A stretch of DNA of 64,000 nucleotides from Gammaproteobacteria bacterium. Lineage in GTDB: Bacteria > Pseudomonadota > Gammaproteobacteria > Pseudomonadales > JAUIET01. The notes beneath the pieces are model-generated. The model was not told the origin of the DNA, did not search any database, and worked only from the letters and a program-made list of their open reading frames with translations. The stretch is from positions 292,414-356,413 of the forward strand of contig JAUIET010000002.1 of NCBI GenBank assembly GCA_030429735.1, read 5' to 3'. Made by a program: the position numbers and the translations under genes. Positions within the stretch are counted from its first letter, which is position 1. The number at the start of each line of letters is the position of its first letter. Positions 7,837 through 53,120 of the stretch are shown piece after piece.

Positions 7837-7850
7837 TTGATCTTGGTCAA
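7837..7850. promoter_or_regulatory. FNR/Anr-type box, one mismatch (TTGATcttgGTCAA)
   Basis: In the divergent intergenic region. Its centre is 69.5 nt from the UspE-like start (7774) and 72.5 nt from ATG 7916. Confidence 0.55.
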
Positions 7851-7915
7851 TGTTGCCGTGGCCACTGTGCATATTCTTATACCCAGAGGCCGTGCTGGGA
7901 GAGTTGGAAGGCACT

Positions 7916-8374
7916 ATGGAATTTAAGCAAATAAGCGATATTCTGGATTGGTCGCAAGCTATCCATGCCGAATTGGCGGAACGTTACCAATCACTTGCTG
8001 GTGAGCTTACCCAGCAGCGCGCGGTGTTGCTGTTGGACTATTTGGCAGATCATCAAAAGCAATTGGAGACGTCAGTTGAGTTGTTGAAAGAGGACATTAG
8101 CCCTGGATTGTTGAATACCTGGACAAGAACGGAGCTTGCGGATGCTTTTCCCAGCAGTTTGATGGAACTGCGTAATCAACTCACTACCTTGTCAACGGAA
8201 GACATTCTGACGCTTTGTATCGACTATCACGATCGGCTGATAAAACTTTACAATGAGCTAAGTCAAACCGCAGACCTGGATTCCAGTCGCGAATTGTTCG
8301 AGAATCTTGCCGATTTAGAGCATCATGAAAAGCTTATTACAGTTCGGGATGCACAGTGGTTGGAAGACTATTGA
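7916..8374 (+). CDS. hypothetical protein (acidic, helical)
   Basis: 152 aa from ATG 7916, with a GGAAGG Shine-Dalgarno-like sequence just upstream. No motif recognised. Confidence 0.5.
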   Translation: MEFKQISDILDWSQAIHAELAERYQSLAGELTQQRAVLLLDYLADHQKQLETSVELLKEDISPGLLNTWTRTELADAFPSSLMELRNQLTTLSTEDILTLCIDYHDRLIKLYNELSQTADLDSSRELFENLADLEHHEKLITVRDAQWLEDY

Positions 8375-8385
8375 TGCGACAGGAA

Positions 8386-9114
8386 TCAATGTTTATGCTT
8401 TGCGTGCCACAGCTCGCGTAAAGCGTCTTCCCCTAATGGTTCGGGGCGCTTGATGCGCAGGCTTTCTGACCATTCGCGCGCAAAGTCTCTTTGCAGGTAG
8501 CTGTTCAGTACGATTATGGTGGTCATTGCAATCAAGGCGCCGAGACTTGCCAATGCCATGTCTTTGTGGGCGTCCCATACGTCACCCTGCGTGCCCAAGT
8601 ATGCCATGCCCAGCTCACCGCCAAAAGTTTCAGCGGCCAGCCACTCTATAAGTTCGTAAAACATTGATGTCGACATGGTTAAATCAAGAGGAAGAAAATA
8701 GCTCCAAAAACCGTGCACATCTGCGACTCGTAAAAACATCTCGCGAATGGGATACGCCAGTAATAGACCGTACAGAAAATGCACGGCGCGATCAAAGTGA
8801 TTGCGATCCCACTCTAAAAGTTCATGCAGGCTACGGCCAGTGAGCTCGATAAACCATTGATTGTAAGGAACTTCGGAGTAGGTGTAGTGCGAACCCACAC
8901 TGTGAAGACACATGAAAATAAATATCATTGTGTAAGAAATTCGTGACAGAGGCATCCATTTGTAGGTCGCCCATAAAACAAACACCGCAATAACAACGAT
9001 TACATTTTCCAAAATCCAGTCGTTTCGATCAACGGGCTCAATCGCGAGTGCAAGCCATACGATGCCATACAATGCGGCCAGGATACGAAAGTAACGGCGA
9101 TGGGCAGTCGTCAT
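8386..9114 (-). CDS. DUF2238/YjdF-like inner-membrane protein
   Basis: Multi-TM protein. From ATG 9114 the N-terminus reads MTTAHRRYFRILAALYG...LAIEPVDRNDWILEN. The longer track ORF (to 9162) would swallow a perfect FNR-type box. Confidence 0.65.
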   Translation of the reverse strand: MTTAHRRYFRILAALYGIVWLALAIEPVDRNDWILENVIVVIAVFVLWATYKWMPLSRISYTMIFIFMCLHSVGSHYTYSEVPYNQWFIELTGRSLHELLEWDRNHFDRAVHFLYGLLLAYPIREMFLRVADVHGFWSYFLPLDLTMSTSMFYELIEWLAAETFGGELGMAYLGTQGDVWDAHKDMALASLGALIAMTTIIVLNSYLQRDFAREWSESLRIKRPEPLGEDALRELWHAKHKH

Positions 9115-9139
9115 ACGTCTCCAGTTGCTTCTTTGCGCT

Positions 9140-9153
9140 TTGATTACTATCAA
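9140..9153. promoter_or_regulatory. FNR/Anr-type box, perfect (TTGATtactATCAA)
   Basis: Its centre is 65.5 nt upstream of the DUF211 ATG (9212) and 32.5 nt from ATG 9114 on the other strand. Confidence 0.7.
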
Positions 9154-9211
9154 GTTTATCACCTGACATCATTCTATTCTAAGCCGAAACATATAAAGTG
9201 GTGAGCAGAAA

Positions 9212-9487
9212 ATGATTGATACCAACATCACACGACTGGTTCTGGATGTTTTGAAACCGCGTCAACCAGGCATACTCGAATTTGCGGAAACGATTGCCAG
9301 CCTGCTAGCAGATACGTCTGTTGAAGTTGCGGTACTGGAAATAGATGAACAGACTGAAACGGTGGCTGTGAAAGTCAGAGGCAATGCCCTCGATTATCAC
9401 TGTTTGGAAAAAGGAATTACTGATATGGGCGCTTCGGTACACAGTATCGATGAGGTAGATGTTTGCAGCACCTCGGAAAAAGACTGA
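9212..9487 (+). CDS. DUF211 (COG1888-like) small protein
   Basis: 91 aa. The RLVLDVLKPRQP pattern is recognised as DUF211, a family I know mainly from archaea. Confidence 0.6.
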   Translation: MIDTNITRLVLDVLKPRQPGILEFAETIASLLADTSVEVAVLEIDEQTETVAVKVRGNALDYHCLEKGITDMGASVHSIDEVDVCSTSEKD

Positions 9488-9491
9488 CACC

Positions 9492-10073
9492 ATGGCCGTG
9501 AGAAAAGATGTTGCTTTTGTCCACGATGTAATTCGTTCAGAAGGAATTGCCCGGCGTTATATGATAGTCAACGGCTTTGACGGTGCGCTGACAGTACTGG
9601 CCTTATGCGTAGGATTCTTGATCAACCGGCAAACTGATCTTGACCTGGTTTTATCAGCGGGAATAAGCGCTTCGGTTGCACTGGCTGTGAGCGGTGTCAA
9701 CAGTGCCTGGTTGAGCGAGTCTGCAGAGCGAAAACGACAGTTAATGGAACTTGAAAGCGCTATGCTCCGTGACCTCAAGGGTTCGCGGCATGAAAGAATC
9801 CGGGTATGGCTTGTTTTAAGTATTGCGCTGAGCAATGGAATCACACCGTTATTACTTGGTCTGTTGATATTGATGCCAATTGGACTGCAGCGCTGGGGGC
9901 TCATCCATTTTGACGAGCCAATGCGAGCGTCCGTATTAATCGGCTTGAGTCTGCTCTTTTTTCTAGGCGCGCTGACCGGAAGAATAAGCGGGGAGCAGTG
10001 GCTGCTGTCGGGTCTCCGCGCTCTGCTTGTTGCCGGCATCACCGCTATTTTGATATTCGCACTGACGTTTTAG
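9492..10073 (+). CDS. VIT1/CCC1-like (TIGR00267-type) membrane protein
   Basis: 193 aa from ATG 9492, 4 nt after the DUF211 stop. Cytosolic N-terminal segment followed by several TM helices. Confidence 0.6.
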   Translation: MAVRKDVAFVHDVIRSEGIARRYMIVNGFDGALTVLALCVGFLINRQTDLDLVLSAGISASVALAVSGVNSAWLSESAERKRQLMELESAMLRDLKGSRHERIRVWLVLSIALSNGITPLLLGLLILMPIGLQRWGLIHFDEPMRASVLIGLSLLFFLGALTGRISGEQWLLSGLRALLVAGITAILIFALTF

Positions 10074-10127: not shown

Positions 10128-10547
10128 TCATTCATTGGACTGCAGTGTCTTTAAGTACGCAACGATTGAGTCAATTTGCTCACTGACTTCAGCGAATGGG
10201 TCTATGTCTGACTCAAAACTGCGCCACTCTCTAACCAGGTCCAGGTAAGACCGGGCAAAATTCGGCATTTCGAAAAGCACGTGGTTTGGCGTAGCCTGGG
10301 AACCAAATAACACCGCACGTACTCTGGCTTCAGGAAACGCCCCATCATTATTGACCGTGAGCTTGGATAAATCAGGTGGATGACGGCCGCTGTAATACGC
10401 AATATTGTAAATGCCGCTGCCATCGTAGTGATGACAATTTACACATTGGTCCAGATAAATCGCTTTGCCATCACTTTCCTGAGTCTGAGCAAGCGCTTGC
10501 GGGCGAACAAACAACATGCAGAAGACTAATAGTATTCTGAAGACCAT
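10128..10547 (-). CDS. periplasmic monoheme c-type cytochrome
   Basis: 139 aa with a signal peptide and a single CVNCH heme-binding motif. Confidence 0.8.
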   Translation of the reverse strand: MVFRILLVFCMLFVRPQALAQTQESDGKAIYLDQCVNCHHYDGSGIYNIAYYSGRHPPDLSKLTVNNDGAFPEARVRAVLFGSQATPNHVLFEMPNFARSYLDLVREWRSFESDIDPFAEVSEQIDSIVAYLKTLQSNE

Positions 10548-10604
10548 AGTAAATGGCTCTAAAAGGTCACAGCATCACTTATACAGGGCACAATTTCCGC
10601 TACT

Positions 10605-10618
10605 TTGATTCTAATCAA
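10605..10618. promoter_or_regulatory. FNR/Anr-type box, perfect (TTGATtctaATCAA)
   Basis: Its centre is 64.5 nt upstream of the cytochrome c start (10547) and 107.5 nt upstream of the hypD ATG (10719). Confidence 0.7.
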
Positions 10619-10718
10619 CTAGGAATTACTTAGTCTCCTTAAACTGTTGCCAGGTAACAATGGGAATGCAGGCATACCAGCGGTGTGGCAACGCTTCGCT
10701 GATGCATGCGAATTAGCT

Positions 10719-11843
10719 ATGCGTTATGCAACTGAATACCGCGATGCAGCAAGCGTGAATTCATTTGTTGAGGCCATCGATAAGATATGTACTCAGCATT
10801 GGGTTTTGATGGAAGTGTGTGGTGGTCAGACTAACGCTATAATAAAGTATGGCCTGGATGAGTTGTTGCCTGAGAAAATTGAGCTGATCCACGGTCCCGG
10901 CTGCCCGGTATGTGTGACGCCTGTAAAGATCATTGATTATGCCATTGCTCTTGCCCAACAGCCGCACAGTATTCTATGCACCTACGCTGACATGCTGCAG
11001 GTACCGGGAACCAACAGTAGCCTGGCCGAAGCGCGTAGCGAAGGCGCGCAATTGCACGTCATGTATTCGCCGCTGGATGCTATCGCAGTAGCGCAGCAAA
11101 ATCCCGATTCGCATATTGTCGTATTGGCCGTTGGCTTTGAGTCTACAGCCCCGGCGCATGCTCTTTTTTTGCAGCAGGCTCGGCAACGCAAGCTGAAAAA
11201 CCTGTCAGTGTTACTGTCTCATTTCAGGGTGCCGCCAGCGCTCAGAGAAATTCTCGCCAATCCGGAGAACAGAGTGCAGGCTTTCCTCGCGGCTGGGCAT
11301 GTATGCTCAGTGATGGGTTACCGGGAGTACGAGCCAATTGCACAACAATACCAAGTGCCGATTGTGGTGACTGGTTTCGAGCCGATCGATATCCTGCAGG
11401 GGATCTATCACTGCGTTAAGCAGCTGGAAGGTGGCCAAGCAAAAGTTGAAAATCAATATGCGCGCGCAGTGACGCGTAAGGGCAACTCGACCGCGCAAGC
11501 GGCTATTGCCGACGTTTTCGAATACAGTGACCGGCAATGGCGAGGTATTGGAGGTATCGCCGACAGCGGATTCAAGCTGAGAAATGGCTATAAGATGTTC
11601 GAACCGGAATTTCATTTCCCAGGGCTGTTGGCCGCCAGTCAGGAAACGCATGGCGGATCTTTGCTATGTACAAGTACGTCCTGCTTGAGTGGCGAAATAA
11701 TGACAGGATTGAAGAAGCCCCCTGAATGCACCAATTTCGGTGAGGCGTGTACTCCAGAGAAGCCGTTGGGCGCTCCAATGGTTACTTCAGAAGGTGCTTG
11801 CCATACGTACTTTCGCTACCGACAAACAGAGAGCAATGCATGA
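10719..11843 (+). CDS. hypD: hydrogenase formation protein HypD
   Basis: ATG 10719 gives MRYATEYRD, a canonical HypD N-terminus. MEVCGGQT and GPGCPVCVTP motifs are present. Confidence 0.9.
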   Translation: MRYATEYRDAASVNSFVEAIDKICTQHWVLMEVCGGQTNAIIKYGLDELLPEKIELIHGPGCPVCVTPVKIIDYAIALAQQPHSILCTYADMLQVPGTNSSLAEARSEGAQLHVMYSPLDAIAVAQQNPDSHIVVLAVGFESTAPAHALFLQQARQRKLKNLSVLLSHFRVPPALREILANPENRVQAFLAAGHVCSVMGYREYEPIAQQYQVPIVVTGFEPIDILQGIYHCVKQLEGGQAKVENQYARAVTRKGNSTAQAAIADVFEYSDRQWRGIGGIADSGFKLRNGYKMFEPEFHFPGLLAASQETHGGSLLCTSTSCLSGEIMTGLKKPPECTNFGEACTPEKPLGAPMVTSEGACHTYFRYRQTESNA

Positions 11844-12922
11844 ATTTGGGTCAGTATACTGGGCCGCTGTGTCCATTACCCGCAGATCACGCAACGGATG
11901 ATCAGGCAAGAGTGCAACTTGCACACGGTTCTGGTGGACAGCTAAGTACCGTATTGCTGGATAAAATCATCCGCCCAGCGTTTGATAATCCGGTATTGGC
12001 CGAACAGCAAGATGGAGCACTTCTGAATGCGGTAAACTCACCGCTGGCATTTACAACAGACAGTTTCGTGGTTTCACCATTGTTTTTCCCGGGCGGGGAT
12101 ATCGGTAAGCTGGCAGTCATCGGAACTGTGAATGACCTCGCCATGTGCGCAGCTGAACCCTGGGTGTTGAGCTGCAGCTTGATCATAGAAGAAGGTTTGC
12201 CAATACCGCAGTTGCAGAAGATTGTCCAATCCATGGCAGTTGCTGCCCGACAACTTGGTGTCACTATCGTCACCGGTGATACCAAAGTGGTCGAAAAGGG
12301 CAGTGGTGATGGTTTGTTTATCAATACAAGTGGTATTGGAAAACTAACGCACGGCACGCATTGCAAGCCATCACACATTGGTAAAAACGACGTGCTTATT
12401 GTCAATGGTGATATCGGTCGTCACGGTGTGGCGGTGTTGTCGCAACGCCAGGGCCTTGAGTTTGAGAAACCAATTTGCAGCGATTGTCAGGGTCTGGCCG
12501 ACATTGTTCAGAGTTTGCTAGCCAATGACATAAGGCCGAACTGTATGAGAGACCTCACACGAGGGGGATTGGCGGGTAATTTATACGAACTTAGTCTCGC
12601 CAGCGGCTGGGCAATGGAGGTAGATGAGGCGCTGATTCCGGTCGCAGACGACGTTGCCGGCGCGTGTGAGCTGTTTGGAATAGATCCTATCCATGTTGCT
12701 TGCGAGGGCCGGTTTGTAGTGATTGTTGATGCCAGACAAGCGGATGAAACCTTGCGTATCATGAGTGAGCACCCCAGTTGCCCTATGCCCCAGCAGATTG
12801 GCCATGTTAGCGAGCCACTTGGCAACAGAGATGACACAGTTCCATTGGTTCTTCGCAGCAAGATTGGAACCAGGCGTCGTCTGGATCCAATACGGGGGGA
12901 GCCGTTACCTAGAATATGCTAA
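11840..12922 (+). CDS. hypE: hydrogenase expression/formation protein HypE
   Basis: 360 aa with ATGA overlap with hypD. PurM/AIR-synthase-like fold and C-terminal PLPRIC (PRIC motif). Confidence 0.9.
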   Translation: MNLGQYTGPLCPLPADHATDDQARVQLAHGSGGQLSTVLLDKIIRPAFDNPVLAEQQDGALLNAVNSPLAFTTDSFVVSPLFFPGGDIGKLAVIGTVNDLAMCAAEPWVLSCSLIIEEGLPIPQLQKIVQSMAVAARQLGVTIVTGDTKVVEKGSGDGLFINTSGIGKLTHGTHCKPSHIGKNDVLIVNGDIGRHGVAVLSQRQGLEFEKPICSDCQGLADIVQSLLANDIRPNCMRDLTRGGLAGNLYELSLASGWAMEVDEALIPVADDVAGACELFGIDPIHVACEGRFVVIVDARQADETLRIMSEHPSCPMPQQIGHVSEPLGNRDDTVPLVLRSKIGTRRRLDPIRGEPLPRIC

Positions 12923-14385
12923 TGTTTGCCAGCCAGTAGTGTGTGTTCACGAGCATCGTAGTCTTCAAGAATATCGTCCAGAACGCCACTGATTCGCGTG
13001 CAATTCTCTATCATTGGAATCTTTGGCCAGGTAGCCCTTTCGCCCGCCAGTACCAGTGTATTTGCTTCGTCTTGTGAAAGCTCAGACAGAAACTTCAATG
13101 GTTGAACGTGCCATAGATCGAGCACAATATTGATGTCACCTAGATACTTTTGATCAATCAGGCTGTGTAAGGTGTTCAAGCCTAAATTCGTTCTCTTCCA
13201 ATTGGGAATGTAGCGGCGCGAGAAACCACGATACGCGTGTAGAGATTCCTTCACCGCATAGTGGCCAATCTGACCCGCAAGCGTGAGCAGGTTCTTTTCC
13301 TCATCCTTTTCGCGTTTTGCAAAAGGTAAGGCCAGAGGGTTGACCATGCTGACAATGAAGTGATTAACACCATACATTCGCGACAGGCGCTTAGCGGGTA
13401 GATCGTCACTCATTGACCCATCCACCCAGCGTCGATTAGACAGATAAGGTTTGGTCCGCCCGTCTTCATCCTTTGCTCTTAGCGCAACGGAAGGGAAAAC
13501 ACCTGGAATTGCTGTCGATGCCATGACTGCTGAGCGGATACATACGTTAGGGGAAGCGACCGCGTTTAGTAGTCGTGATGTCTGATGAACGTCGGCCGGT
13601 GCGACGGAAATATTGATTTTTCGACCAGTCAGCTCGAAAGCCTGCTGAAAAGTGAGATCCGGTACCAGACGTGCTATGTTTTTCTTTAAATCAGCTGTAC
13701 TTATTTTTGACTGAGGTTGCATCAGCAACCGCTCCAGTAAGTTGGCTTCACGGCTGGCCTGAACAATGAGCTCGGACGATTGAAACAGCTCGGCCAATTC
13801 CTGGTCGGAATGTGTTCCGGCGACGGCGGCCACCAGTGCACCTGCGCTTGAACCAGAAATCACGGCAGGGATTAGATTGTGTTCCAGTAATACTTTTAGA
13901 ACACCCACATGAAAGGTTGCCAGGGTTGCACCACCGCTCAGCATCAAAGCGGAACGCCCAAAGCAGTGGCTGGCGCGACGAAAGAAATCCAGTTTATCCG
14001 AAAAACTGATGTCCGTATCGTTGACGTTCGCCAGGTGCACTAGAGCATCGCTGACTTCTTCTACATAATCCGTAATCAGTATTTTAGTACCAGTGTAAGC
14101 GCGCATGTACAGGGCAGGCCGGCCAATACCGCCCATATTGCCATGTATGCCTTCGTTTAAAGCAAACAGCAAGCCTCGATTGTCTTTTTTCTTGCGTAGA
14201 CGTCTCAGCCGCTCAAGTCTACGTCGGATGGACCGGTAATCGTAGAACCGCGACTCTTCTTTTTGCCGCCAGGCCTTTGCCTTGCTTGGCTCGTCCAGAG
14301 TGTCGGCTATTTCATACCACTCAGCATAACTTTCCGCATCTGCCAGCTGCTTTTCCAATTCACGTCTGGAAAGATAATTCTTCAT
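12919..14385 (-). CDS. patatin-like phospholipase/lipase with DUF3336-type N-terminus (paralogue 1)
   Basis: 488 aa with LSGGATLATFHVG oxyanion region and GSSAG (GxSxG) nucleophile. Clearly paralogous to 53214..54629. Confidence 0.85.
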   Translation of the reverse strand: MKNYLSRRELEKQLADAESYAEWYEIADTLDEPSKAKAWRQKEESRFYDYRSIRRRLERLRRLRKKKDNRGLLFALNEGIHGNMGGIGRPALYMRAYTGTKILITDYVEEVSDALVHLANVNDTDISFSDKLDFFRRASHCFGRSALMLSGGATLATFHVGVLKVLLEHNLIPAVISGSSAGALVAAVAGTHSDQELAELFQSSELIVQASREANLLERLLMQPQSKISTADLKKNIARLVPDLTFQQAFELTGRKINISVAPADVHQTSRLLNAVASPNVCIRSAVMASTAIPGVFPSVALRAKDEDGRTKPYLSNRRWVDGSMSDDLPAKRLSRMYGVNHFIVSMVNPLALPFAKREKDEEKNLLTLAGQIGHYAVKESLHAYRGFSRRYIPNWKRTNLGLNTLHSLIDQKYLGDINIVLDLWHVQPLKFLSELSQDEANTLVLAGERATWPKIPMIENCTRISGVLDDILEDYDAREHTLLAGKH

Positions 14386-14576
14386 TGATTATGCCCTTGT
14401 ATATTCGACGACTGGGCAGGGAAAACGGTGCGCGAAGCCTGTACTCTCTTACCTGCAGAAGGCATCCAACTGAGTAAGCAGGTCTCCGGCAGCCAACCTG
14501 GATGGAACGCGCATGACGATCTTATGGCAGCAAGACCGCTGCATGAGCGACTGTAACTAACCGGCATCAGCGGTTA

Positions 14577-14590
14577 TTGATTGCAATCAA
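14577..14590. promoter_or_regulatory. FNR/Anr-type box, perfect (TTGATtgcaATCAA)
   Basis: Lies between the GT4 stop (14628) and the patatin start (14385). Its centre is 198 nt upstream of the patatin start. Confidence 0.55.
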
Positions 14591-14627: not shown

Positions 14628-15917
14628 CTACGATAGCGTCGTATTTCCACGTGAGCATGCATGAACTGTACTTTCCGCGAAGCTCTCAATGATCTCCAAC
14701 TCCGCCTTGATAAGACTGAGCAAGTGTTCCCATGCTTTCAATTTCTGATCGCAATGCATGGCTTGGCGCTTGATGAGCTTCTGGTAGTGGCCAAGCGCCA
14801 AGCCGGCACAGCGTTGCACGGAGAGCGCCTTGGCCGTGGTCACGGATGCGTCTGAGATACCGGTGTATTGCTGGGGGTTTTGCTGGCTTACCCAGCGCAG
14901 TGCATTAGCAAATGCCTGTGAATCTTCGCGACTAAGCAAGCGACCGTTGCGCTGGTCGACGACCACTTCTCGAACCCCCGGACCATCCAGTGCGACAACA
15001 GGTAAACCCGCCGCCATTGCTTCGGTTAGCACCAAACCCTGAGTTTCGCTGGTGGATGCAAAGGCAAACACATTCATCGCGCAATAAGCATCGGCTAATG
15101 CCGAATGGGGTAGCGCGCCTGGAGTAATCAGTCGATCGTCCAAACCTACTTCAGAAAACACTCTCCGTATTGTTTTTTCCTCAGGGCCTGTTCCAACTAC
15201 CAGAAATCCTGCCTTAAGAGATTCTGGACTACGAGCGATAAACTCAGCTACCGATCCTGCCAGAAAGTGCAGGTTTTTTTCAGGTGCGAGTCGACCAACG
15301 TGACCAACCAGAAATACGTCTTCGGAAATACCATACCGTTCCCTAAAGCCAAGGCCATTCCCTTGCTGGAACTGCTCAACGTCCACACCGGTGGGTACTA
15401 CATGAATAGTGCTCTGGACGCCCCGTTCTTTCATAAGCTGACGTATGCTGTTACTCGGTGCGAATACCGCGCTCGCCATATTTGCATATTGCGTGGCTAA
15501 CTCGATGACAAAACGTTGCAGTAAGCGTGAATCTCCAGGCAGATAATGTGTGTATTTCTCGTATAGGGTGTGATGAGTGAATACCAAAGGAAGATTGCGA
15601 TAGCGCGCAACCCGCAAAGCCGTCATGCCAAGCAAGTAGGGGTGGTGGGCATGGACAATGTCTGGTTTGAATTCATTGAGTGCATGGCTAAGCAAGCCAG
15701 ACACTGGCAGCACAACCGAAAAATCGCTGTGGTTAAATCGTTGTATTGCGGGTATACGAATCACTCCCTTTTCACGTTGCGGTCCATCGTCAAACTCTGG
15801 TACGACAATCAGTACTTGGTGACCTTGCGTTTGATACTGTCTGGCAAATGCCTGCACTGAATGCGAAACACCACCAACATGAGGTATGTAGGTATTGGAG
15901 AACATGACTATGTTCAT
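14628..15917 (-). CDS. GT4-family glycosyltransferase
   Basis: 429 aa with N-terminal FSNTYIPHVGGVS and C-terminal TSETQGLVLTEAMAAGLPVV, typical of GT-B/GT4 enzymes. Confidence 0.85.
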   Translation of the reverse strand: MNIVMFSNTYIPHVGGVSHSVQAFARQYQTQGHQVLIVVPEFDDGPQREKGVIRIPAIQRFNHSDFSVVLPVSGLLSHALNEFKPDIVHAHHPYLLGMTALRVARYRNLPLVFTHHTLYEKYTHYLPGDSRLLQRFVIELATQYANMASAVFAPSNSIRQLMKERGVQSTIHVVPTGVDVEQFQQGNGLGFRERYGISEDVFLVGHVGRLAPEKNLHFLAGSVAEFIARSPESLKAGFLVVGTGPEEKTIRRVFSEVGLDDRLITPGALPHSALADAYCAMNVFAFASTSETQGLVLTEAMAAGLPVVALDGPGVREVVVDQRNGRLLSREDSQAFANALRWVSQQNPQQYTGISDASVTTAKALSVQRCAGLALGHYQKLIKRQAMHCDQKLKAWEHLLSLIKAELEIIESFAESTVHACSRGNTTLS

Positions 15918-16042
15918 CGATGCAATCCTTTATTCATGTCGCCTGCAACGATCGCGATAATGGTGAGTAAATATTGTTAAAAACTGTCTATCGCCACTCA
16001 TTAACTGTTGCAGCCAGTCTATGCAGGCCTCAGTAGAACGAG

Positions 16043-16056
16043 TTGATCTTAATCAA
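16043..16056. promoter_or_regulatory. FNR/Anr-type box, perfect (TTGATcttaATCAA)
   Basis: In the divergent GT4/ATPase intergenic region. Its centre is 132.5 nt from the GT4 start. Confidence 0.65.
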
Positions 16057-16068: not shown

Positions 16069-16082
16069 TTGATAACCATCAA
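16069..16082. promoter_or_regulatory. FNR/Anr-type box, perfect (TTGATaaccATCAA)
   Basis: Its centre is 67.5 nt upstream of GTG 16143 of the P-type ATPase. It is 26 bp centre-to-centre from the neighbouring box. Confidence 0.7.
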
Positions 16083-16142
16083 ACTAGCTACTGATGAGGT
16101 GCTTCACACTTGTTCAAGGTTTTTGTAGTAGGAAGATACATC

Positions 16143-18812
16143 GTGCCTCGATCAGACTCATCAATCCACGACTGGCATCGATTACCGAGAAAAGACGTTC
16201 TCGCGAAACTGCAGGTTAATCAGCGCAGTGGACTTAGTAATTCTGAGATCGCCAAGCGTAGCCAGCAGTTTGGGGAAAATAGCTTGCCGATCAAAGAGGA
16301 CAGCCATGTACTGTTTTTTTTCCTGCGGCAGTTCCAGGATTTTATGATTGTGGTTTTGTTGCTTGCCGCGTTGGTTGCGGGTCTGGTGGGTGATCCTCAA
16401 GACGCGATCGTTATTCTGGTGATCGTATTGATAAATGCCGTGATCGGTACAGTCCAGCAATATCGCGCTGAAAAGGCGTTAGCGGCGCTTCGCAAAATTT
16501 CGGCACCGGAGGCTATGGTACTGCGTTGCGGACAAAACCGGCGGATACCGGCAAGCGACCTGCTGCCCGGTGATATTGTGCAGCTTGATGACGGCTCTAC
16601 TGTAGCTGCTGATATTCGTTTATTGGAGCTAAGTCAACTGCAGATCGACGAATCCAGTCTGACCGGCGAATCAGTACCTGTTGAAAAACAGGTGAGCGCA
16701 TTGCATGAAGCTGATTTATCCCTGGGTGATCGCAGTAATATGGCCTACAAAGGCACTATTGTTAACCGTGGTCATGGCTTGGGTGTCGTGGTAGCCACTG
16801 GCTCTGATACCGAACTGGGTAAGATAGCCGGCATGTTGGTGCAGAGTGAGCGTGTAAAAACACCTTTGCAGCGGCGCCTCAGCGAGTTCAGTCGACGTTT
16901 GGCGCTCGCTATAATTGTTATATGTGCAGTGATATTCCTTTTCGGATTTCTGCGGGGTGAGCCGGCATTGTTAATGCTGCTAACTGCTGTCAGCCTGGCC
17001 GTTGCAGGTATTCCAGAGGCGATGCCTGCTGTTGTCAGCGTTGCACTCGCACTCGGTGCACGCAAGCTAAGCGGCCTGCGCGCGTTGATGCGTAATTTAC
17101 CGGCAGTGGAAACTCTGGGTTCTATTGACACCATTTGCACAGATAAAACCGGCACGCTCACGCAAAACCATATGCACCTCGCGCGTTGGCTTTCGGCAAC
17201 GAATACCAGTGCGATCAGCTGTGAGCAATTGGCGGACTTGTCGGACGGTCAATATCGAGATCTAAGTGTGCAATGCCTTGCCCTTAGTAATGAAGTCCTG
17301 GAAGCAGATGACGGTAGTCTGCTGGGTGATCCAACTGAAGTAGCTCTGGTGGAAGCGGCCTTGAAAATGGGGGCGAACACGCTATCCCTGCAGAAACAAA
17401 TACCGCGTATAGCTGACCTGCCGTTTACTTCTGAGCGAGGTCGTATGAGTACGCTACATAAAGACCAGTCAGGCGTTCTCCTGTTCTGCAAAGGTGCGCC
17501 AGAAGAATTGCTGGACAGGTGCAGCACATCACTGAATAGCGAAGGCAGACAAGCGATCGATCAGCAGGAATGGTTGGCGCAGGCAGAGAAGCTGGCAAGC
17601 GAGGGATTCAGGGTGCTGGCGCTGGCGTACCGCAGGCTTGGTCAGGTTCCGCCAGGCATGATCGCAGAAGACCTTGAAACTGATCTTGAATTACTTGCGC
17701 TTGTTGGGTTGATTGACCCGCCACGCGATGAGGCTAAAGCCGCGGTGTCAGCATGTCGCCGCGCAGGCATTCGCCCGATTATGATCACCGGTGATCATCC
17801 TGCAACAGCGCAGACAATCGCTTGTGAACTTGGGATTGCTGATGATGACGATCAGGTGCTGAGCGGATCGCAACTGGCTGACTACTCAGATAGTAAGTTG
17901 GCAGATTGTGTTTTGAACACCACTGTTTACGCGAGAGTGAGCGCAGCGCAGAAATATCGTATTGTTGAGGCGTTGCAGGCGCATGGCAAGGTGGTCGCTA
18001 TGACGGGTGACGGTGTTAATGATGCCCCTGCTCTACGGCGCGCGGATATAGGCATCGCCATGGGCATACAGGGAACAGATGTATCTCGCGAAGCTGCGGA
18101 CATGGTGCTGTTGGATGACAATTTCGCGACCATTGTCGCCGCCGTATCAGAGGGTCGTCGGATTTTCGATAATATCCGTAAATTTGTGAAATACACAATG
18201 ACCTCAAACGCAGGAGAAATATGGACTCTTTTTCTGGCGCCTTTTCTCGGCCTGCCCTTGCCGCTCTTACCCATTCATATTTTGTGGATTAATCTGGTAA
18301 CCGATGGCCTGCCGGGACTTAGTCTGACAGTGCAGGCTGCCGAGCCCGGGCTTGATAGCAGACCACCGCGACCTATGAGTGAGTCGATGTTTGCCAATGC
18401 GATGTGGCAGCATATTTTGTTCATGGGTTTATTCATTGCCGCACTTGCTTTATTTACCCAATGGCTTGCAATCGGGCAGTCATGGCATTGGCAGACCATG
18501 GTGTTCAGCGTACTGACTTTCTCTCAGCTAGCGCACGTATTGGTAATACAGCATGATCGTGTATCGCTCTTCAATGCTCAGGCACGCGCTAACCAGCAGT
18601 TGTTTTTGGTAGTATTGGTAACGATTGCTTTGCAGCTGATCATTATATATTTGCCCTTATGCAACGTATGGTTTCACACTCAGCCATTGAGTGCAGTTGA
18701 ACTGAGCTACTGTCTGCTGCTTCCCGCCTTAGTGGTATTGGCGGTAGAATTGGAGAAGTACTTGTTACGCACACTGTCACGATCACCATCAGTGGCTGAA
18801 CAAACGGCGTAA
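16143..18812 (+). CDS. cation-transporting P-type ATPase, type II (SERCA/CtpF-like)
   Basis: TGES, DKTGTLT, MITGDH and GDGVNDAPAL motifs with about 10 TM helices. GTG 16143 (AGGAAG 7 nt upstream) is preferred to TTG 16110, but the start is uncertain. Confidence 0.9.
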   Translation: MPRSDSSIHDWHRLPRKDVLAKLQVNQRSGLSNSEIAKRSQQFGENSLPIKEDSHVLFFFLRQFQDFMIVVLLLAALVAGLVGDPQDAIVILVIVLINAVIGTVQQYRAEKALAALRKISAPEAMVLRCGQNRRIPASDLLPGDIVQLDDGSTVAADIRLLELSQLQIDESSLTGESVPVEKQVSALHEADLSLGDRSNMAYKGTIVNRGHGLGVVVATGSDTELGKIAGMLVQSERVKTPLQRRLSEFSRRLALAIIVICAVIFLFGFLRGEPALLMLLTAVSLAVAGIPEAMPAVVSVALALGARKLSGLRALMRNLPAVETLGSIDTICTDKTGTLTQNHMHLARWLSATNTSAISCEQLADLSDGQYRDLSVQCLALSNEVLEADDGSLLGDPTEVALVEAALKMGANTLSLQKQIPRIADLPFTSERGRMSTLHKDQSGVLLFCKGAPEELLDRCSTSLNSEGRQAIDQQEWLAQAEKLASEGFRVLALAYRRLGQVPPGMIAEDLETDLELLALVGLIDPPRDEAKAAVSACRRAGIRPIMITGDHPATAQTIACELGIADDDDQVLSGSQLADYSDSKLADCVLNTTVYARVSAAQKYRIVEALQAHGKVVAMTGDGVNDAPALRRADIGIAMGIQGTDVSREAADMVLLDDNFATIVAAVSEGRRIFDNIRKFVKYTMTSNAGEIWTLFLAPFLGLPLPLLPIHILWINLVTDGLPGLSLTVQAAEPGLDSRPPRPMSESMFANAMWQHILFMGLFIAALALFTQWLAIGQSWHWQTMVFSVLTFSQLAHVLVIQHDRVSLFNAQARANQQLFLVVLVTIALQLIIIYLPLCNVWFHTQPLSAVELSYCLLLPALVVLAVELEKYLLRTLSRSPSVAEQTA

Positions 18813-24357: not shown

Positions 24358-24371
24358 TTGATACCGGTCAA
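24358..24371. promoter_or_regulatory. FNR/Anr-type box, one mismatch (TTGATaccgGTCAA)
   Basis: Its centre is 42.5 nt upstream of the kinase start (24322). Confidence 0.5.
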
Positions 24372-24393: not shown

Positions 24394-24407
24394 TTGATAG
24401 AAATCAT
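24394..24407. promoter_or_regulatory. FNR/Anr-type box, one mismatch (TTGATagaaATCAT)
   Basis: Its centre is 62.5 nt upstream of the UspE-like ATG (24463). Confidence 0.5.
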
Positions 24408-25439: not shown

Positions 25440-25453
25440 TTGATTACGATCAA
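25440..25453. promoter_or_regulatory. FNR/Anr-type box, perfect (TTGATtacgATCAA)
   Basis: Its centre is 86.5 nt upstream of ATG 25533. Confidence 0.65.
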
Positions 25454-35058: not shown

Positions 35059-35072
35059 TTGATTGTTGTCAA
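35059..35072. promoter_or_regulatory. FNR/Anr-type box, one mismatch (TTGATtgttGTCAA)
   Basis: Its centre is 42.5 nt upstream of the Lon-like start (35023), within the 110-nt gap after the ferritin-like gene. Confidence 0.45.
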
Positions 35073-35554: not shown

Positions 35555-35568
35555 TTGATCGTTATCAA
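35555..35568. promoter_or_regulatory. FNR/Anr-type box, perfect (TTGATcgttATCAA)
   Basis: In the divergent region. Its centre is 140.5 nt from the EncFtn-like start (35421) and 144.5 nt from the trxC ATG (35706). Confidence 0.6.
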
Positions 35569-40885: not shown

Positions 40886-40899
40886 TTGATTACAATCAA
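40886..40899. promoter_or_regulatory. FNR/Anr-type box, perfect (TTGATtacaATCAA)
   Basis: Its centre is 43.5 nt upstream of the DUF389 start (40849). It lies 32 nt from the left end of the MITE. Confidence 0.6.
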
Positions 40900-40930
40900 C
40901 AATGTATAAGATGCAGTAGCCGCACGGGCA

Positions 40931-41198: not shown

Positions 41199-41248
41199 AG
41201 CCTGTTCTCAATTACAAGCAGAATCTAATTCGTCTCACTAATCGAATT

Positions 41249-42079: not shown

Positions 42080-42136
42080 GAGAATCTCCGTAGATAAGTG
42101 GCCAGCCTATAATGAGTTATTCTGCTGTCAACATGT

Positions 42137-42150
42137 TTGATTAAAATCAA
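42137..42150. promoter_or_regulatory. FNR/Anr-type box, perfect (TTGATtaaaATCAA)
   Basis: Its centre is 64.5 nt upstream of the AhpD-like start (42079). Confidence 0.7.
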
Positions 42151-42250: not shown

Positions 42251-42264
42251 TTGATTCAAATCAA
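42251..42264. promoter_or_regulatory. FNR/Anr-type box, perfect (TTGATtcaaATCAA)
   Basis: Its centre is 64.5 nt upstream of the UspA ATG (42322). Confidence 0.7.
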
Positions 42265-42321
42265 CAGACATTTTTTGAAATTTGCTAGGTTTCAGTATTC
42301 CCACATTAACGGCGGCTAAGA

Positions 42322-45807: not shown

Positions 45808-45821
45808 TTGATTCAAGTCAA
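45808..45821. promoter_or_regulatory. FNR/Anr-type box, one mismatch (TTGATtcaaGTCAA)
   Basis: Its centre is 141.5 nt upstream of the ompW ATG (45956). Confidence 0.4.
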
Positions 45822-45856: not shown

Positions 45857-45870
45857 TTGACCTGTATCAA
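45857..45870. promoter_or_regulatory. FNR/Anr-type box, one mismatch (TTGACctgtATCAA)
   Basis: Its centre is 92.5 nt upstream of the ompW ATG. Confidence 0.45.
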
Positions 45871-45955
45871 ATGCCTTTCCGCATCAGTTTGCGATACTCA
45901 GCTTTGTGGTCGCCACTTACGGTTGGTCGCAGTTCGAATCACCAAGGAGATTGAG

Positions 45956-46675
45956 ATGAAAACGAAGTTAATGGTCTGCGTATTGGCCATGTTGTGGACG
46001 GCAAGTGCCGCTGCCTATGAAACGGGCGACATTTTTGTGCGGGTTGGCGCGGTAGGCGTTGTGCCCAATGAAAGTAGTGACGGCATTGCCGTGCCGGCCT
46101 TGTCTATTGCGCCCATAGCGGGCACTGAAGTAGAGATAGGGAATGAGACCCAGCTTGGCTTGACCATCAACTACATGTTCTCGCCCACCTTGGGACTTGA
46201 CCTGTTGGCAGCTACCCCGTTCAAGCACAGCTTAACGGCAAATCTGGATGGTTTTCAGGCAGGGTTAAGTGTCCCTGCAGGCGAAACTCACCATCTTCCA
46301 CCAACTTTGTCAGTGGTGTACTACCCGATGGGTAATTCTTCCTCTGCCTTCCAGCCCTATATCGGTGCGGGGTTGAACTATACGATCATGTTTGACACTA
46401 AAGTCTCCGGTGAGCTTGAAGCCTTAACCGGTACCCTGGCTGGTGCCGCCGGGCCTGTCCCGCTTGAGCTTGACCTGGACAACTCCGTAGGTCTTGGCCT
46501 GCTGCTGGGCGCTGATTTCGCGTTGGATGACAAATGGCATATCAACGCGTCTGTTCGATGGATTGACATCAACACCGACGCCACGTTCACCTCAGCGCTT
46601 GGTGATACTATTACGGTTGGCAACGTGGAGATTGACCCGCTGGTATGGCAACTCAATGTAGGCTACACATTCTAG
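45956..46675 (+). CDS. ompW: outer-membrane protein OmpW
   Basis: 239 aa from ATG 45956 (AAGGAG SD) with a signal peptide ending ASAAA. OmpW-like beta-barrel ending NVGYTF. Confidence 0.85.
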   Translation: MKTKLMVCVLAMLWTASAAAYETGDIFVRVGAVGVVPNESSDGIAVPALSIAPIAGTEVEIGNETQLGLTINYMFSPTLGLDLLAATPFKHSLTANLDGFQAGLSVPAGETHHLPPTLSVVYYPMGNSSSAFQPYIGAGLNYTIMFDTKVSGELEALTGTLAGAAGPVPLELDLDNSVGLGLLLGADFALDDKWHINASVRWIDINTDATFTSALGDTITVGNVEIDPLVWQLNVGYTF

Positions 46676-51039: not shown

Positions 51040-51474
51040 TTACCTCGGCTCTGCAATAAACACTGGAATTTTTCGGGTGGTTTTGGCCTGATAATCATCG
51101 TAGGGAGGGTAGGCGGAGGCAGCCGCTTGCCAAAGCATGCTGCGCTCCTGCTCGTTGCTTACCTCTCGAACACGCATCTCAAACAATTCGGTTTTATCGC
51201 GTATCTGCACGTCGGGATTTGCACGCAGGTTGTACACCCAGGTAGGGTTCTTTGGTTGACCACCCATCGAGCCTATCAATACGTAGCTGCCATCGACTTC
51301 CACCCGCATCAGTGGAATTTTCCGAATAGCGCCGGTTTTGTTACCGGTATGGATGACCAGAATACATGGCATACCGGTGTCGAGCAGCGTGGTTCCCTCG
51401 GTACCGCCGCTGCTTTCGTAGAGTTCAACTTGCTCGCGTACCCAGTCCAGTGCGGGGGGAATATAGTCTGTCAT
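51040..51474 (-). CDS. DDN-family (deazaflavin-dependent nitroreductase-like, PF04075-type) protein
   Basis: 144 aa with HTGNKTGAIRKIPLMRVEVDGSYVLIGSMGGQPKNPTWVYNLRANP, typical of this family. Confidence 0.7.
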   Translation of the reverse strand: MTDYIPPALDWVREQVELYESSGGTEGTTLLDTGMPCILVIHTGNKTGAIRKIPLMRVEVDGSYVLIGSMGGQPKNPTWVYNLRANPDVQIRDKTELFEMRVREVSNEQERSMLWQAAASAYPPYDDYQAKTTRKIPVFIAEPR

Positions 51475-51638
51475 TTTTTGTGCTCTTTTTTACTACGTTA
51501 AATTTGGAAGCCTAACACGAAACCGTTTCAATCGCTTAGCCTGGCACCTCCCGCGTGCCTGCCATTTTCTGCGGCACCACGTCTGGTTGCGGTGCGTGTT
51601 TCAAGAGAGTAATGCGTACTGCTCAGAGGGCAAACACG

Positions 51639-51775
51639 ATGACTGATCTCAATGGCTGCGCCGAACCTTCAGAAATAACGACGGCCATTGCCTTTCCTGC
51701 CTCGGAAGAATGCACCTTTATAACCGGCGCGAAAATGACGGTAGATGGTGCTGCGTCAGCGATACATAAGGGGTT
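51639..51775 (+). pseudogene. 3' remnant of a short-chain dehydrogenase gene
   Basis: It translates to ...PSEITTAIAFPASEECTFITGAKMTVDGAAS, the typical SDR C-terminal segment. No upstream SDR body is present. Confidence 0.35.
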
Positions 51776-51780
51776 TAGAT

Positions 51781-52128
51781 TTACACCGTCGGTTCTGCGC
51801 TTCCCTGGCAAGCATCCAGAGCGTCGGCCATGCCACGCAGCGTTGCCGCGAGTGCAGTGGCTTCCAGCCGATACCTGACATGGCGACCATCGCGCTCGGC
51901 CGCCAATATGCCGGCTTCTTTGAGCATTTTCAGATGCCGCGAAACCCCGGAAAAATCGATGCCACAACACTCAACGATATCGCTGACCGTCGCTGCACTG
52001 CCATCTGCAGCAAGCGTGGCCACGATGGATATCCGCGTTGGGTCACACAAAGCCTTGAAAAACTCGGGTTGCAAGGCGTCGGACAAAGCCACCTTACAGC
52101 AGCTGGGAAGCGTATTATCTGCGGTCAT
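51781..52128 (-). CDS. arsR: ArsR/SmtB-family transcriptional repressor
   Basis: 115 aa with the winged HTH (LCDPTRISIVATL...VSRHLKMLKEAGIL). Vicinal Cys10-Cys11 and Cys54-Cys55. Confidence 0.85.
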   Translation of the reverse strand: MTADNTLPSCCKVALSDALQPEFFKALCDPTRISIVATLAADGSAATVSDIVECCGIDFSGVSRHLKMLKEAGILAAERDGRHVRYRLEATALAATLRGMADALDACQGSAEPTV

Positions 52129-52146
52129 GTTTTGAGGCTACATTAT

Positions 52147-52162
52147 TTGCATAGAAATGCAA
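52147..52162. promoter_or_regulatory. candidate ArsR operator, palindrome TTGCAT-agaa-ATGCAA
   Basis: The operator's near edge (52147) lies 19 nt upstream of the arsR start. It extends to an imperfect 26-bp dyad (52142-52167). A related motif lies upstream of arsI. Confidence 0.45.
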
Positions 52163-52289
52163 GTAATAGCCGGCATCGCGCAACTGCAATGTGTGTTTTC
52201 TATTGGCAGTAATTGTGCCATTATAAGTGGCCACGCAAAAATCGATGTGGTTTTGGCGATTTCTTACCCACTTATAAAGGCTGATCATC

Positions 52290-53063
52290 ATGCTGACGGA
52301 ACTTTTCTCTCTGCAGGGCAAAACCTGTGTTGTGACCGGTGGTTCACGTGGGCTTGGCTTTTTCATGGCCAAAGCGTTTTTAGGCGCGGGCGCAAAGCGC
52401 GTTTACATAACCGCGCGTAAAGCAGACGCCTGCACTGCGGCCGCGCAGGAGCTGTCCGAACTCGGCGAGTGTATCGCTTTACCTGGCGACATCAGTAGTA
52501 TGGACGAAGTAATGGCGCTGGCAGGCACTTTGAAAGAGCGTGAAGAAAGTATCGATGTGCTGGTAAATAATGCCGGGCGTGGTTGGCTGGAGAGCTTTGA
52601 AAATTTTCCGGAGATGGGTTGGGACAAAGTCATGGATCTCAACGTTAAAGCGCCATTCTTTCTAACCCGTGAGTTAACACCCTTGCTGGCAAATGGAGCC
52701 AGTGCCGATAACACCGCGTGTGTAATTAACATAGGTTCGGTTGCGGGTATTTGCGGCGAGACTGACACATTCAGCTATGCGCCAAGTAAATCCGCTATTC
52801 ACCAGGTCACTCGCAACCTTTCCGCGGTTCTTGCCAAACATCATATTCGGGTAAATGCGATTGCACCTGGGCGCTTTTTTACGGCCATGACAGAATACGT
52901 TGGCAAGGAGCAGTACGAGATGGAATGTGCCTCTATTCCGTTACGACGCTGGGGCGAAGAAAAAGACATTGCCGGCCTGGCCATTATGTTGGCCAGTACG
53001 GCGGGTGGCTTTATTACCGGGCAGATTATTCCGGTGGATGGCGGCCTGACAGTGGTCCGTTAA
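52290..53063 (+). CDS. SDR-family oxidoreductase
   Basis: 257 aa with TGGSRGLG cofactor motif and catalytic YAPSK. Confidence 0.9.
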   Translation: MLTELFSLQGKTCVVTGGSRGLGFFMAKAFLGAGAKRVYITARKADACTAAAQELSELGECIALPGDISSMDEVMALAGTLKEREESIDVLVNNAGRGWLESFENFPEMGWDKVMDLNVKAPFFLTRELTPLLANGASADNTACVINIGSVAGICGETDTFSYAPSKSAIHQVTRNLSAVLAKHHIRVNAIAPGRFFTAMTEYVGKEQYEMECASIPLRRWGEEKDIAGLAIMLASTAGGFITGQIIPVDGGLTVVR

Positions 53064-53106
53064 TCACGTTGGCGTTGCATTACCTGGCAGGTTCAGAGTG
53101 CGCCCA

Positions 53107-53120
53107 TTGATCTGAATCAA
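53107..53120. promoter_or_regulatory. FNR/Anr-type box, perfect (TTGATctgaATCAA)
   Basis: Its centre is 100.5 nt upstream of the patatin-2 start. The arms extend to 9 bp (CCCATTGAT/ATCAATGGG), so it could alternatively be the SDR terminator hairpin. Confidence 0.5.

Follow-up and report, generated by a model that had tools for sequence, protein, structure and literature searches.

Why does a single stretch of bacterial DNA carry the same 14-bp palindrome, TTGAT-N4-ATCAA, in front of one gene after another? The stretch in question, called the window below, covers 64,000 nucleotides (nt) of a Gammaproteobacteria bacterium (GTDB lineage Pseudomonadales; JAUIET01), positions 292,414 to 356,413 of contig JAUIET010000002.1 in assembly GCA_030429735.1. 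A first-pass annotation had read these palindromes (here 'boxes') as an oxygen-limitation regulon, and the sequence is indeed the established FNR/Anr consensus (PMC6588701, PMC12071387). We find that the boxes exist, that they are placed non-randomly, that they stand at a fixed spacing from -10-like hexamers and that the same arrangement recurs in relatives. Their placement, the lack of conservation in their flanks, the -10 spacing, the boxed orthologues and an FNR homologue in a relative all support the regulon reading, and we consider it likely that the boxes are operators for an FNR-type class II activator responding to oxygen limitation.

The scan for the pattern recovers all twelve perfect palindromes that had been listed. 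In 100 dinucleotide-preserving shuffles of the window the mean number of perfect sites is 0.10 and the maximum 2, so that the observed enrichment is approximately 120-fold, where more than 100-fold had been estimated. When up to one mismatch is allowed there are 22 matches against 3.2 expected: besides the perfect sites these include the six one-mismatch boxes already proposed (7837, 24358, 24394, 35059, 45808 and 45857), all non-coding, and four further matches (1794, 45524, 46559 and 59522) that lie inside genes and fit the chance level. We partitioned the scan using a gene map built from open reading frames (ORFs), Pfam and NCBIfam matches, inspection of ribosome-binding sites (RBSs) and database gene calls. 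On this map only 6,202 of the 64,000 nt (9.7%) are non-coding, and they hold all 18 boxes; the 57.8 kb of coding sequence contains no perfect box, as the annotation had noted by eye, and the probability that 12 of 12 random sites would be non-coding is about 7 × 10^-13. Four boxes (9140, 24394, 25440 and 45857) reach into the 5' ends of ORFs when these are taken at their maximal length, but RBS signals, Pfam coordinates and database gene calls put the real starts downstream of them. Database proteins identical to those of the window, P0123 (414 aa) and P0001 (889 aa), the latter confirming the start of the P-type ATPase, support these downstream starts, as does the call of a 103-aa gene in the Logan contig L001.

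Of the boxes, 17 are spread over 7.8-46 kb and the last stands at 53.1 kb, and the flanks of the window (1-7.8 kb and 53.2-64 kb) have none. A two-mismatch scan adds just three intergenic candidates, none of them convincing. No CRP-type TGTGA-N6-TCACA site occurs in the non-coding DNA of the window, no recurrent promoter motif other than the FNR palindrome was seen in it, and scans of it with Rfam and ARAGORN returned no RNA family and no tRNA, respectively.

When the 18 sites are aligned in both orientations, information is found only in the ten core positions (approximately 1.4-2.05 bits each) and not in the flanks; the spacers differ among all boxes, with G weakly avoided at spacer position 6. 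Because conservation is limited to the 14-bp core, the boxes are best described as independent short operators and not as a repeat element. Five of the six one-mismatch boxes carry the same symmetric T5C/A10G change (TTGAC or GTCAA, P ≈ 7 × 10^-6), which has the look of a tolerated operator variant, not of random decay. The looser pattern TTGA-N6-TCAA catches 17 of the 18 boxes, missing 24394 (ATCAT), together with one coding match.

The window does contain one repeat that could lend substance to a different origin, in which a short repeat or mobile element would have given rise to the palindromes, or else chance or base composition. This 282-bp element at 40924-41205 resembles a miniature inverted-repeat transposable element (MITE), bounded by 41-nt terminal inverted repeats of 95% complementarity and enclosing two nested 23-nt hairpins. 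Its outermost 21-24 nt (CTAGTGTCCCTTAMCATAAGTTCG) also occur alone near two of the boxes, at 25479-25499, 25 nt downstream of box 25440, and at 36151-36174, at the 3' end of the thioredoxin 2 (Trx2) gene. However, the terminal repeat has no sequence relation to the boxes and its distance to them varies, the boxes themselves share nothing beyond their core, the shuffles never approached twelve perfect sites, and orthologous promoters in other genomes are boxed despite dissimilar surrounding DNA. The shuffles, the wholly non-coding placement and the bare flanks already refute such an origin, and the probability that we would assign to it is negligible. The MITE-like repeat was sought in the other loci that we fetched and was not found there; L001 terminates within it, which suggests an assembly break at the repeat.

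For the promoter geometry, the 36 flanks (18 boxes, two directions) were scored for hexamers at each offset between 8 and 39 nt past the box. The pattern TAnnnT is found at an offset of exactly 21 nt in 10 of the 36 flanks, compared with 0-2 at each of the 31 other offsets (binomial P ≈ 2 × 10^-11). Near-consensus hexamers at offsets 21-22 (GATAAT, CATAAT, TATAAG, TATAAA, CATTAT and GATACT) add nine promoters, for a total of 19 box-promoter pairs with a -10-like hexamer in register. For class II activators of the CRP/FNR family, as at the FNR and CRP promoters of Escherichia coli, the dimer takes the place of the -35 element and the box is centred at -41.5. With a transcription start placed 7 nt beyond the hexamer, the centres of the boxes here are predicted at -40.5 or -41.5, which is the class II position.

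The distance from box centre to start codon lies between 62.5 and 72.5 nt for nine genes at eight boxes, with predicted leaders of 22-32 nt (Table 1). The annotation had given such distances (62-73 nt) to nine sites: the distances stand, including the three of exactly 64.5 nt (10605, 42137 and 42251) and the assignment of the hypothetical gene at 7916 as an additional target of box 7837, but the count does not, since eight boxes serve the nine genes. The proposed class II geometry is supported and the leaders predicted for these nine genes are close to the proposed 20-30 nt, but several other predicted leaders are much longer or close to zero.

Three single boxes (7837, 10605 and 35555) have an in-register -10 hexamer on both sides. 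This suggests that each may form a bidirectional promoter for a divergent gene pair: a universal stress protein (USP) gene and a hypothetical gene at 7837, cytochrome c and hypDE at 10605, and EncFtn and Trx2-Pat at 35555. Three other divergent regions instead have back-to-back boxes, each aligned to its own -10 (16043/16069, 24358/24394 and 42137/42251). At the other extreme of leader length, the Lon-like protease (ATG 35023) and DUF389 (ATG 40849) genes have no RBS and start 2-3 nt from the predicted transcription start, so their mRNAs are predicted to be leaderless, or in the case of the Lon-like protease to have a leader of 2 nt. These starts are backed by gene calls in L001, by a tblastn match from residue 1 in L004 for the Lon-like protease and by the register of the TIGR00341 profile for DUF389. 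A leaderless AAA33 mRNA from ATG 24322 was considered and rejected: the ortholog alignment begins at Met6 (ATG 24307, RBS GGAG), which leaves a leader of about 17 nt. Two ORFs were also rejected as box targets, orf61 (14382-14567) and orf79 (41002-41241); neither has a Pfam match, and orf79 lies within the MITE-like repeat.

Table 1. The 18 boxes with their predicted targets and promoter elements. d, distance from box centre to start codon; leaders are predicted lengths; a row without box positions belongs to the box above it.
Box	Core	Target (strand)	-10-like hexamer	d (nt)	Leader (nt)	Remarks
7837..7850	1 mismatch, GTCAA	tandem USP, 6866-7774 (minus side)	TAACAT, 7810-7815	69.5		two divergent promoters
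		hypothetical, 7916-8374 (plus side)	TATTCT, 7872-7877	72.5		
9140..9153	perfect	DUF211-VIT1 operon, 9212-10073 (+)	TATTCT, 9175-9180	65.5		
		DUF2238, start 9114 (-)		32.5		too near for activation
10605..10618	perfect	cytochrome c, 10128-10547 (-)	TATAAG, 10578-10583	64.5		box common to both targets
		hypD-hypE, 10719-12922 (+)	TAAACT, 10640-10645	107.5	67	
14577..14590	perfect	patatin/DUF3336 gene 1, 12919-14385 (-)	TACAGT, 14550-14555	198.5	~158	
16043..16056	perfect	GT4 glycosyltransferase, 14628-15917 (-)	TAGACT, 16016-16021	132.5	92	
16069..16082	perfect	type II P-type ATPase, 16143-18812 (+)	CACACT (weak), 16105-16110	67.5		unit possibly includes GAF-PAS-PAS hybrid kinase, 18937-21387
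24358..24371	1 mismatch, GTCAA	AAA33-glutamate dehydrogenase operon, 24307 down to 21457 (-)	GATAAT, 24331-24336		~17	
24394..24407	1 mismatch, ATCAT	tandem USP, 24463-25392 (+)	TAAGCT, 24429-24434	62.5		
25440..25453	perfect	hypothetical 103-aa gene, 25533-25844 (+)	TACGCT, 25475-25480	86.5	46	gene called in L001
31799..31812	perfect	8-gene operon, 31737 down to 25882 (-)	TACTAT, 31769-31774 (or TAATAC at offset 21)	68.5		
35059..35072	1 mismatch, GTCAA	Lon-like protease + USP-like gene, 35023 down to 31837 (-)	AACACT, 35032-35037	42.5	0 or 2	no RBS
35555..35568	perfect	EncFtn-like, 35134-35421 (-)	TATAAA, 35527-35532		99	box common to both targets
		Trx2-Pat, 35706-38880 (+)	CATAAT, 35590-35595		104	
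40886..40899	perfect	DUF389/TIGR00341 + DUF6544, 40849 down to 38948 (-)	TATCAT, 40859-40864	43.5	~3	no RBS
42137..42150	perfect	AhpD-like CMD + hypothetical, 42079 down to 41249 (-)	CATTAT, 42109-42114	64.5		
42251..42264	perfect	single-domain USP, 42322-42792 (+)	TAGGTT, 42286-42291	64.5		
45808..45821	1 mismatch, GTCAA		none in register in either flank			49 bp upstream of the OmpW promoter box
45857..45870	1 mismatch, TTGAC	OmpW, 45956-46675 (+)	GATACT, 45893-45898	92.5	51	
53107..53120	perfect	patatin/DUF3336 gene 2 + alpha/beta hydrolase, 53214-55616 (+)		100.5		

The same arrangement can be looked for in other genomes. Relatives of the window are distant: for the proteins tested, no relative above 75% identity exists among 5.8 billion clusters, and the closest non-self matches are 60% identical for the ATPase and 75% for the glutamate dehydrogenase (GDH); the matches that carry a name are 'Pseudomonadales bacterium' and Halioglobus. 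Identical proteins are found in one NCBI genome and in Logan run ERR3428548, and L001 is identical to the window over positions 25134-40958. The locus with the 60% identical ATPase (L052) keeps the GT4, ATPase, DUF211 and VIT1 genes together and has only two perfect boxes, both upstream of the ATPase. That with the 75% identical GDH (L055) forms an island of genes for WS/DGAT, an FtsH-like protease, glycogen phosphorylase, AAA33-GDH, a response regulator, a PAS hybrid kinase, HSP20 and GT4; upstream of its FtsH-like, AAA33-GDH, response regulator and hybrid kinase/HSP20 genes are four intergenic boxes, three of them perfect and one with TTGAC. In a single metagenome-assembled genome (GCA_051008535.1, loci L057 and L058), boxes are found upstream of GroES, GDH, a tandem USP and, in L058, an ATPase-DUF211 cluster. 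The -10-like hexamers of the relatives likewise stand at an offset of 21-22 nt. Orthologues of the P-type ATPase, AAA33-GDH, tandem USP and sensor kinase genes are boxed at equal spacing in three related loci.

As a background, the 674 kb of fetched loci contain six perfect boxes, five of which are in these syntenic relatives. The non-syntenic loci with ATPase or GDH homologues (L053, L054 and L056) have no perfect box. The Lon-like query against genome contigs returned relatives of at most 50% identity and the Pat query against metagenomes 43 loci of about 50% identity; perfect boxes are absent from five of the six Lon loci (L008 has one) and from all 43 Pat loci. As a separate observation, L057 has two perfect boxes between its divergent groES-groEL and GDH genes (4014-4299), and its chaperonin operon may be under FNR control.

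The relatives also offer a candidate regulator. Adjoining the boxed tandem USP gene of L057 is a gene for a 254-aa protein with cNMP_binding and HTH_Crp_2 domains (P0243). It belongs to a tight clade of approximately 269-aa proteins (P0243-P0259, encoded on L057 and further contigs), which share 64-81% identity with P0243, have an N-terminal extension of about 30 residues and are only about 38% identical to the canonical Fnr of Pseudomonas, Burkholderia and Marinobacter; beyond the clade, identity to P0243 falls sharply to 53% and then 47%. The residues C35, C38, C44 and C137, as well as E224, S227 and R228, which make up the E--SR recognition helix, are invariant in nine of nine clade members, all of them from relatives. 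The best solved structure for the clade is the FNR of Aliivibrio fischeri (5cvr, E = 8 × 10^-39), and the C-x2-C-x5-C motif and central cysteine of the clade align with the corresponding cysteines of this protein, which are the [4Fe-4S] ligands of FNR. To judge from these residues, the relatives have a genuine FNR-type oxygen sensor with the side chains that read TTGAT. For the window genome's own member of the clade, P0254 is a candidate only.

A separate association emerged from the Pat search. Ten of the metagenomic loci with Pat homologues of about 50% identity (L009, L010, L012, L014, L015, L016, L023, L039, L045 and L046) have a nearby ORF of 232-256 aa with an FNR-type helix (DIADYLGLTLETVSRMF) and no perfect boxes. 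The pairing of Pat with FNR or FixK may be a recurrent gene association.

Several observations weigh against an FNR-type class II activator acting on these boxes. As the first-pass annotation had said, no regulator of the family is encoded in the window: domain scans found no CRP/FNR protein (cNMP_binding plus HTH_Crp) within the 64 kb, and a regular-expression search of the window ORFs for the E--SR helix gave no match. A 153-aa cNMP-binding protein at 86-547 was rejected as a regulator because it has no helix-turn-helix (HTH) and lies inside a hydrogenase operon. The box centre implied by a start 7 nt past the hexamer is -40.5, not the canonical -41.5. Box 16069 has only a weak -10, and box 53107 has none at the class II offset, its nearest candidates (TAGGAT and GATAAT) lying 7-10 nt beyond offset 21-22, an atypical geometry. 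Box 45808 has no evident promoter, and is possibly an upstream class I-like or auxiliary site for OmpW. Paralogues of the FixK and Dnr type read the same box, and the DNA does not fix the signal, which could be oxygen, nitric oxide (NO) or a two-component cascade. Finally, box 9140 is unfit for activating DUF2238, whose start is only 32.5 nt away.

The last of these placements would suit a repressor, and FNR-family proteins do repress some promoters, for example cioA by Anr (PMC6588701). One could accordingly imagine that a repressor, or some protein that is not of the CRP/FNR family, has all the palindromes as its operators, and that the fixed -10 spacing reflects occlusion of the promoter. 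However, the motif is the FNR consensus itself, the target genes match regulons activated by Anr or low oxygen (PMC3721108, PMC6588701), and a box at the -35 position of promoters that otherwise have no -35 is the textbook arrangement of class II activation. Repression as the general explanation thus seems very improbable to us.

A different protein on the same operators deserves more attention, although we still think it unlikely. Here a CRP/FNR paralogue without an Fe-S cluster, of the FixK, Dnr or NnrR type, would bind the boxes and would itself be set by a FixLJ-like two-component oxygen sensor or by NO, such that oxygen is sensed indirectly or another signal controls the island. FixK has been proposed as the regulator of the analogous lxa locus (PMC12973609, PMC12071387), and FixK2 (4i2o) is the second structural match of the FNR-clade protein. 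Possible partners are also at hand: the gene immediately after the boxed ATPase encodes a GAF-PAS-PAS hybrid kinase, whose best NCBIfam match is the NO-associated NahK/ErcS family, but below the cut-off, and in L055 the PAS hybrid kinase and the response regulator are themselves boxed. Against this, the four cluster cysteines of FNR are kept throughout the clade in the closest relatives, no denitrification genes are found in the island, and 12 of the 18 sites keep the full TTGAT-N4-ATCAA and not just the looser TTGA-N6-TCAA.

With an FNR-type activator, the locus would work as follows. The 18 palindromes would bind a dimeric CRP/FNR-family protein of the FNR/Anr type, with the box overlapping the -35 region and centred approximately 40.5-41.5 bp upstream of the predicted transcription start. 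The bound dimer would recruit RNA polymerase to promoters that have a -10 but no good -35, and about 19 promoters in 15 intergenic regions would then drive about 35 genes, with three of the boxes each serving two divergent promoters. If the oxygen-labile [4Fe-4S] cluster is part of the regulator, the island would be switched on when oxygen is limiting, and it would presumably help cells that are not growing to survive, as lxa does in Burkholderia.

What would such a regulon contain? The boxed set comprises approximately 35 genes in about 22 transcription units, within an island of about 38-45 kb. Five of its proteins have USP domains (three tandem and UspE-like, one single and one degenerate). 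The P-type ATPase is of the type II Ca type and is followed by the GAF-PAS-PAS hybrid kinase. As to lipid genes, the eight-gene operon encodes, in order, DUF4136, WS/DGAT, ABC, MlaE, MlaD, MlaC, STAS and MlaC, i.e., a DUF4136 lipoprotein, a wax-ester/triacylglycerol (TAG) synthase and an Mla-like ABC lipid transporter, in tightly packed or overlapping genes, and there are two paralogous patatin/DUF3336 lipases, one paired with an alpha/beta hydrolase. The rest of the set includes the GT4 glycosyltransferase, the Lon-like protease, the EncFtn-like ferritin, Trx2 with a Pat-type ADP-forming acyl-CoA synthetase/GNAT protein, DUF389 with DUF6544, the AhpD-like CMD protein, DUF211 with VIT1, cytochrome c, HypD-HypE, OmpW and the AAA33 kinase-GDH operon. 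In its USPs, OmpW, cytochrome c and cation ATPase the set agrees with the low-oxygen regulons of Anr and lxa (PMC3721108, PMC6588701).

Some of these genes are of interest in themselves. The two patatin/DUF3336 paralogues (12919-14385 on the minus strand and 53214-54629 on the plus strand) are 39 kb apart and 77% identical over a 62-nt stretch, and the perfect boxes before them stand at different distances, as given in Table 1. The EncFtn-like protein scores above the TIGR04535 cut-off as 'encapsulin-associated ferritin'; no encapsulin shell gene adjoins it, and its neighbours are the Lon-like protease and Trx2. The 534-aa AAA33 protein (22703-24307, minus strand) has an N-terminal kinase-like region with a CHGDLHLENL motif and a C-terminal AAA_33 P-loop kinase, and has no NCBIfam match; its operon with GDH is kept both in the window and in L055 (8397-9995), at 51% identity.

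Outside the boxed set, a [NiFe]-hydrogenase operon occupies positions 1-6644 and begins upstream of the window. It encodes a ferredoxin-like C-terminus (1-85), the cNMP-binding-only protein mentioned above, an NAD-binding/Fe-S subunit, the small and large subunits, HycI, HypA and HypF. The hypD-hypE pair is split off from it by 4 kb and lies under an FNR box, and neither hypB nor hypC was seen in the window. A member of the F420H2-dependent quinone reductase family (PF04075, E = 1.5 × 10^-40) is encoded at 51040-51474 on the minus strand, in what is apparently a gammaproteobacterium; its gene adjoins two class II dehydroquinase paralogues, one of them degenerate.

Taken together, the gene content invites a more ambitious reading, which we put forward only tentatively: that this is a lineage-specific 'hypoxic persistence island' of poorly sampled marine bacteria resembling Pseudomonadales or Cellvibrionales, in which a divergent FNR clade couples oxygen limitation to the storage and mobilization of neutral lipids, Pat acetylation, Lon-like proteolysis and the handling of iron and redox, as a convergent Gram-negative counterpart of the DosR system. 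If so, its promoter layouts would be unusual as well, with single boxes firing two class II promoters and leaderless mRNAs for the Lon-like and DUF389 proteins.

The mechanism itself is not new, being of a kind already known from Burkholderia and Pseudomonas; what sets the locus apart is the density of its boxes, its lipid-storage content, the predictions of bidirectional and leaderless promoters and the poorly sampled lineage. About 19 promoters now have predicted start sites, near 7803, 7884, 9187, 10571, 10652, 14543, 16009, 16117, 24324, 24441, 25487, 31762, 35025, 35520, 35602, 40852, 42102, 42298 and 45905, those at 35025 and 40852 belonging to the predicted leaderless Lon-like and DUF389 transcripts. 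If confirmed, the island would be the second clear case, after lxa, of an FNR-box programme for low-oxygen survival gathered in one place, and the first in a marine gammaproteobacterial lineage. Confirmation would also bring wax-ester/TAG synthesis, patatin-like lipases, a Pat-type acetyltransferase and a Lon-like protease into an FNR regulon, and would give an oxygen-limitation context to DUF211, DUF389/TIGR00341, DUF4136, DUF6544, DUF2238 and three hypothetical proteins. It would further strengthen the idea of a similar dormancy toolkit reached by convergence in aerobes of different phyla.

Among known systems, the lxa locus of Burkholderia cenocepacia J2315 and the Anr regulon of Pseudomonas come closest. 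The lxa locus (BCAM0275a-BCAM0323) packs 50 genes into 50.7 kb; low oxygen induces it up to 240-fold, and anoxic survival requires it (Sass et al. 2013, PMC3721108). Its intergenic FNR-like motifs number 17, and its genes include those for six USPs, cytochrome c, a cation ATPase, ABC transport, storage polymers, a protease and sensor kinases, along with an Anr-like regulator within the locus (PMC3721108). Compared by functional category only (Table 4 of PMC3721108), the two clusters are alike in compactness (about 38-45 kb and 35 boxed genes here), in their intergenic FNR-like inverted repeats (17 versus 18 here), in their USPs (six versus five here), in having cytochrome c, a cation P-type ATPase, ABC or outer-membrane transport, storage metabolism, an ATP-dependent protease and sensor kinases, and in the overlap of their functions with the mycobacterial DosR regulon. 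They differ in that the motif published for lxa is just a 4-bp inverted repeat (TGA-N6-TCA core), whereas the full TTGAT-N4-ATCAA is found here, and in that the Anr-related regulator BCAM0287 lies inside lxa while none is found in this window. The lxa locus has polyhydroxyalkanoate storage, ack-pta, alcohol dehydrogenases, alpha-crystallin and a class II ribonucleotide reductase; the island here instead has WS/DGAT, two patatin-like lipases, the Mla-like transporter, the Lon-like protease, Pat, Trx2, EncFtn and OmpW. The hosts are a betaproteobacterium of 67% GC and a gammaproteobacterium of 50% GC, and lxa is known from expression and deletion data, whereas the present island is known from sequence alone.

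The Anr regulon of P. aeruginosa is reportedly the subject of Trunk et al. 2010. The Anr box, 5'-TTGATNNNNATCAA-3', is the same consensus as here, and USP genes and oprG are among the Anr targets (PMC6588701, PMC12071387). Specifically, the USP genes PA3309 and PA4352 and the OmpW-family porin gene oprG are targets, oprG/ompW belongs to the core Anr regulon, and Anr itself is an Fe-S protein of the FNR type (Tribelli et al. 2019, PMC6588701). The Anr regulon, however, comprises about 200-250 genes scattered over a 6-Mb genome, whereas here 18 boxes share 45 kb. Denitrification, arginine fermentation, heme biosynthesis and terminal oxidases are also under Anr control but have no genes in the island, and canonical Fnr/Anr has only about 38% identity to the FNR clade of the window organism's relatives.

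The class II promoters of E. coli FNR share with the present ones the palindrome and its position in place of the -35 element. In enterobacteria, too, ompW is activated by FNR. The spacing here is mostly one base shorter (21 versus 22 nt from box to -10), three single boxes apparently serve two divergent promoters each, and two targets are predicted to be leaderless. The DosR (DevR) regulon of Mycobacterium tuberculosis, finally, is induced by hypoxia, contains many USPs, a WS/DGAT TAG synthase, a P-type cation ATPase and redox proteins, and serves non-replicating survival (PMC3721108, PMC12071387). Its regulator, however, is a NarL-type response regulator that reads another DNA motif in another phylum, whereas the recurrent motif here is the FNR palindrome, and the DosR regulon is a functional analogue of the island, not a relative.

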